Positions 3,448 through 8,183 of a DNA stretch of 64,000 nt are shown piece after piece. This DNA comes from Candidatus Multivoradales bacterium (GTDB lineage: Bacteria > Acidobacteriota > Thermoanaerobaculia > Multivoradales > J023): assembly GCA_965248925.1 (NCBI GenBank), contig CBDFLE010000004.1:64001-128000 (forward strand), given 5' to 3'. Below the pieces are notes generated by a model. The model saw only the letters and a list, made by a program, of their open reading frames with translations. It had not been told where the DNA came from and did not search any database. Every line of letters starts with the position of its first letter. Positions within the stretch are counted from its first letter, which is position 1. The position numbers and the translations under genes were made by a program.

Positions 3448-3837
3448 CTACCGAGAGCGCCAACTAGCTTCAGGAACAGATCTTGCTACAACATCAATGC
3501 AATCATCATCTGTGAAAATTGCATAGTGAGTCAAGTCGAATTCTTCTAGCACGCCACCACTCTCTCTCTCAAGCCAAGCGACCCACTTAGAGTCTTCCAC
3601 TTCCAGGAGGCCCGGATGCGTCGGTGTTTCAAGCGTCCTCCAAGTCTCAAGCCTGTAACTCTCATCAATGCATCGGTATGCAACAACATCAGTAAATAAT
3701 AAGCGTAGAATATGTTCATTTGCTGTATCAATAAGTAAGAGTTCTAACCCGTCGGCTTCGTCCCTCAAGCTTAAAACGGTGAGTCTATGTGGGATGCCTG
3801 CAAGAGGGAGCCAGTCGCTATATTTCTCAACGTTCAC
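3448..3837 (-). CDS. Immunity protein for the distal orphan Rhs toxin
   Basis: 129 aa, acidic, lower GC, start overlaps the toxin stop by 1 nt. Confidence 0.8.
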   Translation of the reverse strand: MNVEKYSDWLPLAGIPHRLTVLSLRDEADGLELLLIDTANEHILRLLFTDVVAYRCIDESYRLETWRTLETPTHPGLLEVEDSKWVAWLERESGGVLEEFDLTHYAIFTDDDCIDVVARSVPEASWRSR

Positions 3838-5828
3838 TAATCCATCTCCAGAAATCGGATCTTAATCGGATTTGCTCCACCCTGAATCTCAAGCGTAGGC
3901 GAACCGGCTGAACTGCTCGGGCGAACAACAACTGTTCGGCCGTCGGGAAGTGTACCAACTCTGACGCCATTGCCCTTGTCCGTTACACCTTGAAGATGCA
4001 GTGCGTCAAAATCTGCGTTGGCTTGCTGAACTCCACCACTCCTCTCAAATTTCACTGCCCGGCCGTTTCTCATCTGGCCAGGATTTGTCCTCCTAGCGTC
4101 CGCGAGGATGTCATCTAGGCTCCCCCTTGGAACTGCGCGCGATCCCCGTTGAAAGACCTTACCAAGTCGAGCAAAGACAGCAGACAGCTTTGACCCAACA
4201 CTAGGAAGTGCTTTTCGAGTAACAGCGACAACAAGAGTCGTCTCGTCGACTGGCGAGAGAAGGCTGGCAGCAAACAGTGCTCCCATTCCCCGAGCATTGA
4301 TGTTCTCAATGTACTGCTCCTGGGTGATCTCGCCCCGCATCAAGCGCTGTATATCTTGTTCGAGAGCCATCGCCGCACGGCTTTCTCGCCCATTGGGGTC
4401 GATCTCGTTGATCGGGTTGTTTCCCGCATAGGAATAGCGGTTCCAGCTTCCCGGCGCGCTGGGCTTGGCGGACTTCGCCGGATCGACACTCAAGAACCGC
4501 CCCACCACCGGACTGCAATGCCGAGCATGCATGTAGTCCAGCTCGCTCCGGCTGCCTGTGCCCGTCTTGTCTCGCTCATGCCCTGTAAACTTCAGCTGGA
4601 TCTCGTCAGCTCCCGGGTTGGTCGCTTCCTGGCCAAACGGGTAATAGTTGTGCAGCGCCACCTGCTGACCACCCCGAGTGATCTGCCGAGGCGTACCTAA
4701 ATGATCAAGATGGAGATGTGAGGTCATCTCGCCACCGCTACCCTCGGGCTCGATGGTGGCGAGAGGCTGCCCGCCACGATGAACGTAGTCTCGGCTCCAG
4801 CCGAATGCGCCGCCAGCTGGCTGATCGTAGACCCGCAGAACCTCGTTCCCAAGCCCACGCAGGGTCCAGGTGAGGCTGGCGGGCTGGGTGGTGCAGGTGC
4901 TGGTGGCGCCGGGGCCGAAGCAGTCGAAGGTGAGGATCCGCTCGCCCTCTGCGTTGTAGATGTAGACCCGTGCTTGATCGGTGTTCGAGCGCAGGTGCTT
5001 CATCATGTTGGCGCCGTCGAAGGCATAGTCGAAGCTCTCGCTACCGAGGGTGATGTCGGTCAGATTGCCGGCCGCGTCGTATTGAGCGCCCGAGAGGCCG
5101 AGGCGATTGGTGGTGGCGTTGGGGTTGAGGTTGAGAGCCGCGAAACCGGGTGTTGATAGTTGCTGGATGTTGCCGAAATTGTCATAGGTCGCCGTCTGGG
5201 TGAACCGGGTGGCGCCGACGGAGGTCTGGCCGGAGCGTAATCGGCCGAGGCGGTCATAACGATAGTCCAGGTTGCCGATGGCGGAAATATTTCCAGCTCC
5301 GTCGTAGGCGAAGTTACCGCTGCTCCAGCCCGCAGAGGTGGTCAGCTGGTGCGGCCGGGCGAGGCCGTTCAAGCTGCTGACTTCTTGGCTGTCGACCACA
5401 CCATCGCCGTGGGTGAGCTGATGCAGCATGCCACCGCTCTGGTAGGTGAGGTTGTTGGCGAATCCAGGCACGGACCTGAGCATACCCTTTTCGTATTTGA
5501 AACTCACCGTGCGCTGCGGATCGTTGGTGGCACAGCCACCGTCGGCGTGCTGGCAGCTGGGGTAGTCGAGTTGCGACAAATTGCCCTGGGTGTCATACCC
5601 GAATCCCGTGGTGAAGGCGTAGTTGCCGGCGAAGAACTGGTAGCGAGTCTGCTTCTCCGACATCAAGCCCTGGCGACCGCTGTAGCGGAAGCTCTCGGAG
5701 AGCTTGACGTCGAGGGAGCCGGGCTCGGGGGCCAGGGGATTCTGGATGTCAACCCAGTTGTGGCGCACCGTCTGCACCAGCCGAGGCGGGTGGCACGTTG
5801 TTGGCATTGTTGCCGATGTGGGTGGCAT
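3837..5828 (-). CDS. Orphan Rhs module 2: YD repeats, Rhs core and C-terminal toxin
   Basis: HLDHLGTPR, FTGHERD, PVVGRFLSVDP, NNPINEIDPNG; tip ends GTLPDGRTVVVRPSSSAGSPTLEIQ…KIRF; N-terminally truncated copy of the main Rhs. Confidence 0.92.
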   Translation of the reverse strand: MPPTSATMPTTCHPPRLVQTVRHNWVDIQNPLAPEPGSLDVKLSESFRYSGRQGLMSEKQTRYQFFAGNYAFTTGFGYDTQGNLSQLDYPSCQHADGGCATNDPQRTVSFKYEKGMLRSVPGFANNLTYQSGGMLHQLTHGDGVVDSQEVSSLNGLARPHQLTTSAGWSSGNFAYDGAGNISAIGNLDYRYDRLGRLRSGQTSVGATRFTQTATYDNFGNIQQLSTPGFAALNLNPNATTNRLGLSGAQYDAAGNLTDITLGSESFDYAFDGANMMKHLRSNTDQARVYIYNAEGERILTFDCFGPGATSTCTTQPASLTWTLRGLGNEVLRVYDQPAGGAFGWSRDYVHRGGQPLATIEPEGSGGEMTSHLHLDHLGTPRQITRGGQQVALHNYYPFGQEATNPGADEIQLKFTGHERDKTGTGSRSELDYMHARHCSPVVGRFLSVDPAKSAKPSAPGSWNRYSYAGNNPINEIDPNGRESRAAMALEQDIQRLMRGEITQEQYIENINARGMGALFAASLLSPVDETTLVVAVTRKALPSVGSKLSAVFARLGKVFQRGSRAVPRGSLDDILADARRTNPGQMRNGRAVKFERSGGVQQANADFDALHLQGVTDKGNGVRVGTLPDGRTVVVRPSSSAGSPTLEIQGGANPIKIRFLEMD
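4480..5781. repeat. 1302-bp direct repeat of the rhs 3' region (partner 14555-15856)
   Basis: Same offset (10075) at both ends; near-identical protein from LVQTVRHNW to FLSVDP. Confidence 0.95.
5780..5804. repeat. Post-immunity boundary motif, copy 2
   Basis: GCCGAGGCGGGTGGCACGTTGTTGG; begins exactly where homology to the main rhs stops (5781). Confidence 0.8.
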
Positions 5829-5841
5829 GCCTGATGGAACC

Positions 5842-6300
5842 CTAGTCGGGCAGCGCCCTCAGAATATCCATGATGCCGGAGTAGTAGCTGCTCTCCTGTG
5901 GAGAAATCGATTTCATTTTGGAAAAAAAATGTAGGCCTGCCCTCTTGAAAGCTTCGAAAAATTCCATAGAGTACGCCTCAATTTCCTTTGATTCTCCATC
6001 CCACTCTAGCTTCATGACAACTCTCTGTGCCTTCTGAAAGTAGAGCACCGAGATGTCGATAGGCTGATCCGGGAAAGAAGTCGTGGCCTTCCCGTATTTC
6101 TTAGCTCTCGCAAGGCAGTCGACGACAAGTGACCAAAGCACTTCAATCAAGTCGCCATACTCTTCATCCATCAGTGTTCGAGAATCGCTGGAGACAAGAA
6201 GAACTCCGGCCAAGTACTCCGGGTCATGAATAAGCTGATCAAATTCATCCAAGGGAACAAAGTTCCCATTCTGTAGAAGAAGCGTACGAACAGAAACCAT
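5842..6300 (-). CDS. Immunity protein for orphan Rhs toxin 1
   Basis: 152 aa, low GC, TGATG overlap with the toxin stop. Confidence 0.8.
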   Translation of the reverse strand: MVSVRTLLLQNGNFVPLDEFDQLIHDPEYLAGVLLVSSDSRTLMDEEYGDLIEVLWSLVVDCLARAKKYGKATTSFPDQPIDISVLYFQKAQRVVMKLEWDGESKEIEAYSMEFFEAFKRAGLHFFSKMKSISPQESSYYSGIMDILRALPD

Positions 6301-7397
6301 CAGGCAGCACCTTCAGGAAATGCGGTGACGATTCGTCCGCGACGAACCACTACTCGATACACGATTCCATCAACGGTACCTCTCAAGACGACTCTCAAGT
6401 CGCTCCCTAACGCCATCCTGTTTCTGTTCTGCTGCAGCACGGCCCCAATTATCCCGGTGAGATCTTCGATCTTGCTACTGTCCGCAAAGAAACTCTGTAC
6501 TTTTGAGACTGACCCGTCCCAAAATTGGGGGTGATGCCGGCTCAAAATATGAGTCAGACCCTTGCGGTCAAGCTGAACAACGTTCTTTCCAAATCTGAAT
6601 CTTGTTGCTCGTATTCCTCGAGTTGCATTGGCGACTTTCTGTGGGCGAGCTACCCGAAGAAACAGCCTTGATGCCCGGGCAACCTTGACAGAAGCTGATG
6701 CTCCTCCAGGGATCCCAGGTACACTTGTCGCAGCTAAATCTAATGCGAGCGCTACGCTATCAACGATCACGCCACCTACATTTCCTGAGACGATATTCGT
6801 TGCCAAACTGGCAGTGCCGATGCTGACATTCGCTACATCCCAGACGGTTTCTATCGCCCGCCCATCCGGGTCGACAAAATTTATCGGACCGTTGGCACCG
6901 TATGTATATCGATTCCAGCTCTGTGGATGTGGAGTTGTGGCCGACTTCGCCGGATCCACACTCAAAAACCGCCCCACCACCGGGCTGCAATGCCGAGCAT
7001 GCATATAGTCCAGCTCGGAGCGGCTGCCGGTCCCGGTCTTGTCCCGCTCATGACCAGTGAATTTCAGCTGAATCTCATCCGCCCCCGAGTCGGTCGCCTC
7101 CTGGCCAAACGGGAAGTAGCCGTGCAACGCCACCTGCTGTCCGCCTCGGGTGAAGGGGACAGCCCGACGCGGTTTCCAGCTTGAGAGCTGGTAACCCTCT
7201 ATGCCTGTTCTACTTAAGCCTCGCTCGGCCCTACTGCCGGCGGGGTCTTGGTGCTCGAAGGTCCAGAGGCGAGTTTCGGCGTAGCTCGACTCGGAGATCG
7301 GCGCGATCGCTGTTGCCGGCATCGTCACCGCCAGGAGCGCGACGACCAGCCCGAGCGCCATCGTCCAAGTGCTTCTTCCTTTAGCTGCCTGCCTCAT
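6300..7397 (-). CDS. Signal-peptide leader fused in frame to orphan Rhs core and toxin 1 (probable RNase)
   Basis: Hydrophobic N-terminus MALGLVVALLAVTMPATA; Rhs core from TRGGQQVALH to NFVDPDG; tip has HILSRH…IVTAFP. Confidence 0.85.
   Translation of the reverse strand: MRQAAKGRSTWTMALGLVVALLAVTMPATAIAPISESSYAETRLWTFEHQDPAGSRAERGLSRTGIEGYQLSSWKPRRAVPFTRGGQQVALHGYFPFGQEATDSGADEIQLKFTGHERDKTGTGSRSELDYMHARHCSPVVGRFLSVDPAKSATTPHPQSWNRYTYGANGPINFVDPDGRAIETVWDVANVSIGTASLATNIVSGNVGGVIVDSVALALDLAATSVPGIPGGASASVKVARASRLFLRVARPQKVANATRGIRATRFRFGKNVVQLDRKGLTHILSRHHPQFWDGSVSKVQSFFADSSKIEDLTGIIGAVLQQNRNRMALGSDLRVVLRGTVDGIVYRVVVRRGRIVTAFPEGAA
6952..7153. repeat. 202-bp Rhs-core direct repeat (partner 14555-14756); terminal 32 bp identical
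   Basis: Offset 7603 at both ends; about 30 mismatches by manual count; 7122-7153 is identical to 14725-14756. Confidence 0.92.
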
Positions 7398-7478
7398 GCC
7401 GGGCCATTCTACGCCGCGGGTGGCGCTCGAAGACAGCGGCTAAAGGAGGAAGGGTGGTTGGTGCGGAGGCGGGATGCG

Positions 7479-7530
7479 GTTTTCTTAGGCCGCTTTCTTC
7501 GGGCAGTGGGTGTTTTCTTAGGTCGTTTTC
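7479..7530. repeat. Two 19-bp direct repeats, 33-bp period
   Basis: GTTTTCTTAGGCCGCTTTC (7479-7497) and GTTTTCTTAGGTCGTTTTC (7512-7530). Confidence 0.75.
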
Positions 7531-7861
7531 GTTGGGCTGGTCGTCGGAGCGAGCGCGGGTCTTTCCGGCAGTTTGGTGCCGGCGGCACAGAGGGCAGCCG
7601 CCAAACCAATCTGCACGTTGGGGGCGTGGTGGCGGCGGGGCCGGAGCCGAGCACGGCGACCGCAGGGCGCCGCGCGCAGGGTACGGAGGCCACGACGCAG
7701 GGCGGGTCTTGGGAGGAGGATGGGGAGCCCCCTTGAGGGGGCGGACGGGTCCGGGCCGAGCCGTCGCAGTGCAAGTCGGTGGATCTCGGCAAGGAGGCCA
7801 AGAGCGGGGCGTGCTTCCGAAGCCGCTGACCTTCGACGGCCACCAACGTGCTCGCCCCAAG

Positions 7862-7887
7862 TTTCCATAATGCACGCGTTATGGAAA
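7862..7887. other. dif/cer-like candidate tyrosine recombinase site
   Basis: TTTCCATAA-TGCACGCG-TTATGGAAA: perfect 9-bp arms, 8-bp spacer, CATAA/TTATG inner ends as in dif. Confidence 0.7.
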
Positions 7888-7923
7888 GGCCGTAGGCCCG
7901 GAGCCGGGGCGTGTGAGGGCCAG

Positions 7924-7949
7924 GTCGGATAGGGCGCGCACTATCCGAC
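7924..7949. other. Second 9-8-9 palindrome related to the first
   Basis: GTCGGATAG-GGCGCGCA-CTATCCGAC; central 16 bp (reverse complement) match site 1 at 12/16. Confidence 0.6.
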
Positions 7950-8183
7950 AGCGACCCATGCAAGCCGCGTGACATCTGGGAGGTCCGAGGAGGGGCCCAG
8001 GTGGCGCGCGGCTTGCGGAGCGGCTGGCCCGTGCCCGGAGGGAGCGCAGCGACCGGAGGGACACACGCCCCGGCGGAGCTTGGGGCGAGCTTTCGGAGAC
8101 TCTTTTCTTGGACTACCTGAAGCCTCGCTCCGGGCCGGTGATCGGAGGGCTCAGGTGGTGGATCGCAGATGCTCGGGCGGGGG

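Follow-up and report, generated by a model that had tools for sequence, protein, structure and literature searches.

We analysed a window of 64,000 nucleotides (nt) from a Candidatus Multivoradales bacterium of the Thermoanaerobaculia (contig CBDFLE010000004.1, positions 64,001 to 128,000 of the forward strand), in which a full-length Rhs gene is followed by the genes of an integrative element and by an open reading frame (ORF) that joins a short non-Rhs leader to an Rhs core fragment and a toxin tip, here called tip B. In gene direction the element comprises the attachment (att) core, an Rhs core with its tip, an immunity gene, a helix-turn-helix (HTH) regulator, a primase-helicase, a XerC-like recombinase, a non-coding arm and the leader, and in the window it spans about 7.6 kb, from about 14755 down to 7153. 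The coordinates of all features are collected in Table 1.

The ORF bearing the leader encodes 365 residues and opens at ATG 7397, the earliest ATG, GTG or TTG past an in-frame stop located 15 codons upstream. When the region was compared with itself, DNA similarity to the full-length Rhs gene and to a further Rhs fragment, orphan C, stopped exactly at 7153; nucleotides 7154-7397 are therefore non-Rhs sequence, a stretch of 244 nt or 81 codons plus one base. No stop codon interrupts the leader, the Rhs core and tip B, the immunity ORF overlaps the tip stop, and an Rhs-associated core was recognised at residues 94-179 (NCBIfam TIGR03696, 58.7 bits against a cutoff of 32.5). An earlier model-made annotation of the same DNA, hereafter the sequence-only reading, had described about 82 non-Rhs codons running without a stop into the Rhs core and toxin B, and both points were confirmed.

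At its N-terminus the predicted protein carries K6 and R8, a hydrophobic stretch from M13 to M26, the residues P-A-T-A-I-A-P and then SYAETRLWTFE. Direct reading of the sequences and of the family alignment described below revealed a basic n-region, a hydrophobic h-region within the usual 10-16 residues and small residues at positions -3 and -1; the leader N-terminus thus looks like a Sec signal peptide, as had been proposed. Cleavage by signal peptidase is predicted to be more likely after A-T-A than after A-I-A, because P33 comes right after the latter. Public gene calls of all copies in this genome begin at the second ATG (M13, window position 7361) and lose the basic n-region. We favour the first ATG as the start because homologues retain R-A-A-K-G-R upstream of the M13 position.

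Tip B, the last 180 residues or so of the ORF, gave only sub-threshold Pfam matches (Ntox10, 1.1e-5; EndoU, 3e-4) and is unlike tips A and C of the neighbouring Rhs genes. Its core is 78% identical to the main Rhs gene over 292 nt and 85% identical to orphan C over 216 nt. A core fragment with a variable C-terminal domain, lying downstream of a full-length rhs gene, is what characterises an orphan rhs-CT; orphan tips usually have no N-terminal secretion part of their own, whereas tip B is preceded by an ATG, a Sec-like signal and 81 foreign codons. The premise of the sequence-only reading that orphan tips usually lack a start needs to be qualified, as the excerpted text of PMC7043789 describes Salmonella orphan Rhs tips expressed from promoters and starts inside rhs sequence, with no added leader.

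The same leader occurs 12 times in the genome to which the window belongs, with 100% identity over 82 residues and with 244 of 244 nt identical in all 12 copies. Each copy is preceded by the same backbone, consisting of the HTH gene (in some units), the 1054-residue primase, the XerC-like recombinase and a spacer of about 0.8 kb, and backbone identity between copies ranges from 92 to 99%. Every one of the 12 leaders opens into an Rhs core and a tip, giving ORFs of 351-367 residues, and at least nine different tips stand behind them (two pairs of copies share the same tip and the tips of a third pair are nearly identical). The copies sit 3' of full-length Rhs genes at four loci, as single insertions in the window and at C6:1.34 Mb, as an array of three at C6:3.50 Mb and as an array of seven at C5:0.92-0.98 Mb. 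The next small ORF starts between -1 and +13 nt from the first base of the tip stop in ten copies and at +25 in the other two. The unit encodes a recombinase, is bounded by direct repeats of the core site and varies in copy number among genomes, as expected of an integrative element of the tyrosine-recombinase type. Two older elements, 80-89% identical (C4:254183-260106 and C6:3624298-3629538), are inserted at att-like sequence in the repeat region, rather than the core, of other Rhs genes.

Some further observations concern these copies. About 1.2 kb downstream of one Rhs core, at C6:4017229-4017606, a solitary remnant of 378 nt is 99.5% identical to window positions 13169-13546, which belong to the HTH end of the backbone; the rest of the element is missing there. 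Several tips of this genome, such as that of the copy at C5:922161 and that of orphan C at about residue 560, contain an internal ..V-P-R-G after a common linker, and in one of them the domain that follows is the one found directly behind the leader in the metagenomic protein P0016. This genome may therefore contain two nested exchange points.

Searches for relatives showed that the leader family is rare in species genomes. Among 41 related genomes, the own genome included, four gave a leader match: the own genome, two other Thermoanaerobaculia genomes of another genus in the same family (G016 and G009) and G026. The match in G026 was weak, covered only the signal-peptide part and was treated as spurious. 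Within the family, three of 24 genomes have the element. At the level of the phylum, with 401 genomes covered, only the own genome and G380 matched, the latter again weakly and in the signal-peptide part alone, and this match was likewise treated as spurious. Scanning 185,579 species for two leader peptide patterns returned two other genomes, a metagenome scan returned one locus (L042), and a scan of IMG/VR with the family alignment gave no match. In G016 four such units, with their genes in the same order, lie behind a 3747-residue Rhs; a 7.9-kb contig of the G009 species carries HTH, primase, recombinase and leader in that order; and L042, a metagenome contig of 1.4 kb, contains the upstream arm, the leader, a toxin-like domain of about 120 residues and an adjacent small ORF. 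The backbone was found upstream of the leader wherever context exists, namely in the own genome, in G016, in contig L038 and, as the upstream arm, in L042. In these relatives the leader joins a ..V-P-R-G boundary in front of the toxin domain and not an Rhs core, and in the main Rhs of G016 the same V-P-R-G precedes the same tip.

The leader also heads a family of small proteins. A profile of five leaders was compared with 1.84 billion representative proteins (E <= 1e-3) and returned 52 matches, 28 of them at E <= 1e-10. Five were proteins of the own genome and five multi-stretch matches were repeat proteins, discarded as spurious (P0037, P0041 and P0049 by reading, P0050 and P0056 by their match pattern); the remainder were small proteins that begin with the leader. 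No long protein occurs among the non-spurious matches, so the leader does not head a large toxin. The alignment was built from 40 matches and the window protein, leaving out the five own-genome clusters, the five repeat proteins, P0011 and P0032. It retains the K/R n-region, the hydrophobic core, P-A-x-A-S-A and then ..YAETRVWGF.., the leader ends in ..RG in 29 of the 40 members, and 30 of the 40 continue for at least 90 further, mutually unrelated residues. Toxin-domain matches were obtained in one member each for Ntox10 (1e-28), CdiA_C, Tox-SHH, Ribonuclease and DUF2380, that is, toxin Pfam families in four members other than the window protein and DUF2380 in a fifth. Ten clusters that were looked up were unnamed or "hypothetical" metagenome singletons, and a word-indexed protein search with residues 1-82 returned only proteins of the own genome (nine clusters, all called from M13). 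A conserved N-terminus, a boundary motif, unrelated C-termini and an adjacent small ORF (in all 12 own copies and in L042) make up the layout of polymorphic toxins, with toxicity and immunity being predicted. The expectation of the sequence-only reading that the leader alone would be found on varied toxins beside xer and primase genes was borne out both in the own genome and, as to the varied toxins, among the homologues.

We then considered the junction between leader and toxin as a candidate recombination site. The composite pattern CTGTCCCCTTCACCCGAGG.GG.CAG is present at every leader junction of the own genome and matches 12 times in its 8 Mb, at leader junctions only. The first and last 10 nt of the junction site form inverted repeats, at 8 of 10 positions around 6 nt in the own genome; in the equivalent site of G016 unit L1, CTGTTCCCCTGTCCCAAGGGGAACAG, the arms are perfect (10 of 10), and the same arm layout recurs in G009, in L042 and in the old C4 copy with 6-8 of 10 positions. 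The leader contributes its end as the left arm, and the right arm is toxin coding sequence, which in the candidate attR corresponds to the R-G-G-Q codons of the Rhs core. Recombinases of the XerC type act on short sites with inverted arms. The leader/toxin junction thus resembles a dif-like site, which fits recombinase-driven, in-frame swapping of tips. The sequence-only reading had also predicted that the leader would be in frame with tip A in a circular form of the element. Positions 7153 and 14756 both fall on second codon positions (7397-7153=244 and 19062-14756=4306, each 1 modulo 3) and are followed by 32 identical nt; a circle would therefore fuse the leader in frame to core A and tip A, in agreement with the prediction.

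A model in which a block of backbone, leader, tip and immunity gene was inserted after an immunity gene was dropped, as its right end would fall in non-conserved cargo, the only conserved inverted-repeat site being the leader/core junction. In both G016 and G009 the last leader of the array has no toxin behind it and is followed by the same chromosomal flank; at G016 C50:189850-190068 (L015) and at the end of G009 C36 (L044) this leader continues for 6 and 34 codons, respectively, before a stop. The original target in these two genomes may have been an Rhs gene ending just past the V-P-R-G site.

The leader was then examined as a coding module. Its start codon (ATG or GTG) is kept in the own genome, G016, G009 and L042, the start of G009 being forced to GTG by an in-frame TAA two codons upstream. 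The same four cases have a hexamer, TAGAAT or TACAAT, 6-8 nt ahead of the start, and this -10-like hexamer suggests a leaderless mRNA. A 17-nt inverted repeat around the start (7372-7388 and 7436-7452) folded no better than shuffled sequences (z = -0.84) and was set aside. The layout of a signal peptide is kept across the family though the residues change. The codon phase of the right arm is the third position in the own genome and the first in G016 and L042, and the length from the start to the end of the spacer is 251 nt in the own genome against 216 in G016 and 252 in L042, a difference of 1 modulo 3; leader length shifts with junction phase, so that each leader stays in frame. In L042 the other two frames carry stops across the leader stretch, and in several family members recognisable toxin domains follow in frame past the junction. 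The comparison of the two phases supports selection on a leader in frame with the element's own tip, as it would be read in a circle or an array. Since the leader is in frame with that tip and that tip is in frame with Rhs, in-frame fusion to a displaced tip is automatic and so gives no independent sign that such a tip is meant for expression. It is plausible that the resident tip, once displaced, and its immunity gene would benefit from the same cap.

Table 1. Features of the element and its surroundings in the window (aa, amino acids; attL and attR, left and right attachment sites).
Feature	Position	Strand	Remarks
Leader	7154..7397	-	ATG, Sec-like signal, about 50 further non-Rhs codons; last 9 nt are most of the left arm of the site
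Candidate attR core, 26 nt	7137..7162	-	10-nt arm, 6-nt spacer, 10-nt inverted arm, 8/10 complementary
Rhs core fragment and displaced toxin tip B	6300..7153	-	Now read from the leader start
Candidate immunity B, 152 aa	5842..6300	-	ATG overlaps the tip B stop by one base; role suggested by position
Non-coding arm, recombinase gene to leader	7398..8183	-	-10-like hexamer 8 nt upstream of the ATG
XerC-like tyrosine recombinase, 357 aa	8184..9257	-	Pfam PF00589, 2e-36; NCBIfam NF002331, 429 bits, cutoff 371
DnaG-type primase (zinc ribbon, Toprim) with C-terminal P-loop region, 1054 aa	9257..12421	-	Pfam, NCBIfam
HTH_3 (XRE-type) regulator, 164 aa	12837..13331	+	Pfam
Candidate immunity A, 107 aa	13566..13889	-	22 nt past the tip A stop; role suggested by position
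Full-length Rhs, 1716 aa	13912..19062	-	Now bears core A and tip A, element cargo from about 14755 downward
Candidate attL	14740..14765	-	Spacer and right arm same as attR; left arm is Rhs sequence
Orphan C, 663-aa Rhs fragment with tip C, no leader	3837..5828	-	92% identical to the main Rhs over 1302 nt
Candidate immunity C, overlapping small ORF	3448..3837	-	Downstream of orphan C

The candidate immunity protein B had no family match in Pfam or NCBIfam. Orphan C, lying beside the capped tip B, reads as an older displacement of the ordinary, homology-driven kind. Within the non-coding arm two 26-nt direct repeats (7479-7504 and 7512-7537) are 85% identical with a spacing of 33 and could be bound by the HTH protein, by the recombinase or by a replication protein. 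In addition, 22 nt at 7985-8006 on the plus strand are about 77% complementary, in inverted orientation and 835 nt away, to the right arm of the att site and its flank (7128-7149), a complementarity that may be accidental.

These data can be brought together in a mechanism in which the leader would be the fixed 5' module of an integrative toxin-cassette element. The recombinase would exchange strands at the dif-like 26-nt site, the left arm of which is provided by the last leader codons and the right arm by toxin coding sequence, namely the codons for T-R-G-G-Q of the Rhs core in the own genome and for the V-P-R-G boundary before the toxin domain in the relatives. As the arms lie in leader and toxin codons, integration would amount to an in-frame domain swap: the host Rhs shell would gain the tip and immunity gene of the element, and the resident tip and immunity gene would end up behind the leader. 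In the circle, as in tandem arrays, it would be the element's own tip that the leader heads. The leader would supply a start codon, probably a promoter, and the Sec signal, so that a tip without a shell could still be translated, the immunity ORF that overlaps or abuts its stop could be translated along with it, and the shell-less toxin would be exported from the cytoplasm. The primase-helicase suggests a replicating circle, and the arrays may have arisen from repeated integration or from duplication. The element is real; the function of the leader is what we infer. To the overall reading, that a XerC-like recombinase integrates a toxin-cassette element at a 26-nt site and that the leader caps the resident tip, we assign a probability of about 0.68. 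More tentatively, and with slightly less than even confidence, we picture a domain-swap shuttle, possibly a replicative element of the Xer type, whose dif-like attachment site is formed by codons of the motif at a toxin boundary (TRGG or VPRG) and whose universal leader keeps unattached toxin-immunity pairs expressed and the cytoplasm safe, with the weapon changed and the immunity to kin retained.

Several results weigh against this interpretation, some of them concerning the leader as a protein. The 244 nt might be kept as DNA (as a recombinase arm, as accessory sites or as another promoter) or be homogenised, with no protein made and the open frame incidental. A block of 328 nt at 7144-7471, made up of the leader with 74 nt before its ATG and 10 nt of the core behind it, is invariant in 12 of 12 copies, with near-invariance extending to about 7800, and the recombinase gene varies among the same copies; unitigs of the DNA runs also cover 7144-7749 as one piece. 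DNA-level constraint or homogenisation therefore acts on 7144-7471, the cause being either gene conversion near the att site or constraint on the DNA itself. Between lineages the leader has an omega of 0.68-0.96, and within one genus of 0.29-0.64, against 0.08-0.14 for the recombinase gene in comparable pairs, and its dS of 0.5-0.67 is below half of the 1.2-1.7 of that gene, a pattern that DNA-level constraint or homogenisation explains as well as or better than selection on the protein. Moreover, the leader end belongs to the core site, a sigma-70 promoter scan of 5700-8300 found no consensus promoter before the leader, and in the two older elements the leader carries a stop or frameshifts with the recombinase and primase frames still open. 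The family counts are themselves biased toward open frames, because the members are predicted proteins. Set against this explanation are the signal-peptide design kept despite differing residues, the retained start codon, the frame held across two junction phases, the stops in the other two frames of L042 and the real toxin domains in frame in several members, and we regard an incidental frame as quite unlikely. The sequence-only reading had named a non-conserved leader or frequently out-of-frame junctions as the outcome that would speak against it: the leader is kept and in frame in all 12 copies, whereas the two broken old copies and the weak codon constraint limit this agreement.

Other points bear on the recombination step. 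One of the four attL sites, C6:1342651, retains Rhs-type bases through core position 20; there the crossover took place outside the proposed spacer, or the site was overwritten later by homologous exchange. The contigs of four DNA runs from one sample, which break at repeats and drop rare forms, contained no excision, empty-site or circle joint, and the sole joint found in them, 7852 to 8066, is a length variant present in other copies. Neighbouring array units are identical or nearly so, hence arrays may have grown by duplication and not by repeated integration. Homologous recombination and tandem duplication among Rhs cores, with xer and primase as passengers of a defunct island and no site-specific element at all, would account for this deviant attL and for the adjacent duplicated units, and about 200 nt of core homology does flank every unit of the own genome. 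The explanation fails to fit G016, where junctions of units with different tips have only 11 nt in common and those with the chromosomal flank share about 19 nt with the neighbouring unit, which is too little for homologous recombination. The junction position is also conserved between genera despite different targets, its inverted-repeat architecture matches a Xer-type site, and the old copies lie at other positions in Rhs genes but at similar sequence; we consider a purely homology-driven origin improbable. A further alternative takes the leader-toxin ORF as the element's own small, Sec-exported polymorphic toxin, with the capping of displaced tips and the expression of old immunity genes as side effects. 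It draws on the classic layout of conserved N-terminus, boundary motif and variable C-terminus, and on the fact that outside the own genome most members consist of the leader and a domain of about 100 residues without an Rhs core. Sec alone, however, reaches just the periplasm of a diderm cell, the mature leader, of roughly 50 residues, shows no evident domain for delivery or entry, and the elements lie 3' of a large Rhs wherever the upstream context is known (the own genome and G016; for G009 the context covers only the downstream flank common to G016). We judge this alternative unlikely, if the least so of the three, and prefer the reading in which the leader caps tips displaced by site-specific integration.

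The element shares features with several known systems. Phage 21, e14 (in icd) and many integrants of tRNA genes insert within the 3' portion of a gene and supply a new 3' end in exchange. As in those cases, a tyrosine recombinase acts at an att site located within a gene, which remains whole, and the old end of that gene persists as a downstream remnant; here, however, the replacement end is a different one, consisting of a new toxin and immunity gene, and the remnant acquires a start and an export signal as its cap. Polymorphic toxins are known to carry boundary motifs, among them the VENN of CdiA and the core motif of Rhs. The corresponding motifs at the leader/toxin junctions are ..VPRG, ..AARG or TRGG. 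A conserved N-terminus, a short motif, unrelated C-terminal toxins and an adjacent immunity gene are common to our family and to the boundary-motif toxins of PMC3482391. What distinguishes the present case is that the motif codons appear to be the recombinase site itself, so that exchange would be site-specific and not homology-driven.

The excerpts on enterobacterial orphan rhs-CT/rhsI modules (PMC3150448, PMC3967940, PMC7043789) likewise describe a core fragment with tip and immunity gene downstream of a full-length rhs and older tips kept as an array, orphan C being exactly such a case. Here, in contrast, displacement goes with an element that encodes recombinase and primase and has a defined short site, and an ATG and a signal peptide are added to the tip that is displaced. 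Short sites around exchangeable cassettes, Xer-related recombinases and arrays also recall integrons and the pdif modules of Acinetobacter, as presented in the excerpts of PMC7399989 and 10.1101/2024.04.09.588662; unlike these, each unit here has its own recombinase and primase, and the site lies inside an ORF so that the cassettes are in-frame protein domains. The recombinase scored well below the cutoffs for integron integrases (TIGR02249, 100.6 bits against 265; NF011946, 69 against 435). The rAID clusters of Bacteroidales, going by the excerpt of 10.1101/471110, similarly pair a Xer-like recombinase with arrays of immunity genes and toxin remnants, but they gather immunity genes for defence, whereas here whole tips join a delivery scaffold and others are headed by the leader. 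In the full-text literature (supplements and subscription journals being outside its scope) neither an in-frame swap of Rhs or other polymorphic-toxin tips by a recombinase/primase element nor displaced tips capped by a signal-peptide leader were found described. Tip displacement and integrative elements are known themes; the proposed swap driven by a recombinase/primase element together with the leader cap is a new variation on them.

The exchange of polymorphic-toxin tips is usually ascribed to homologous recombination with orphan cassettes. If the proposed mechanism is true, a dedicated, site-specific and in-frame swap that can be repeated, with arrays of up to seven units, would represent a new route for the spread of toxin-immunity pairs and a rare natural case of recombinase-mediated swapping of protein domains. 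According to the rationale set out in the excerpt of PMC4927057, a cell that loses its old immunity should be killed by kin that have not swapped. The leader bears on how displaced tips, and above all their immunity genes, would stay expressed after a swap.

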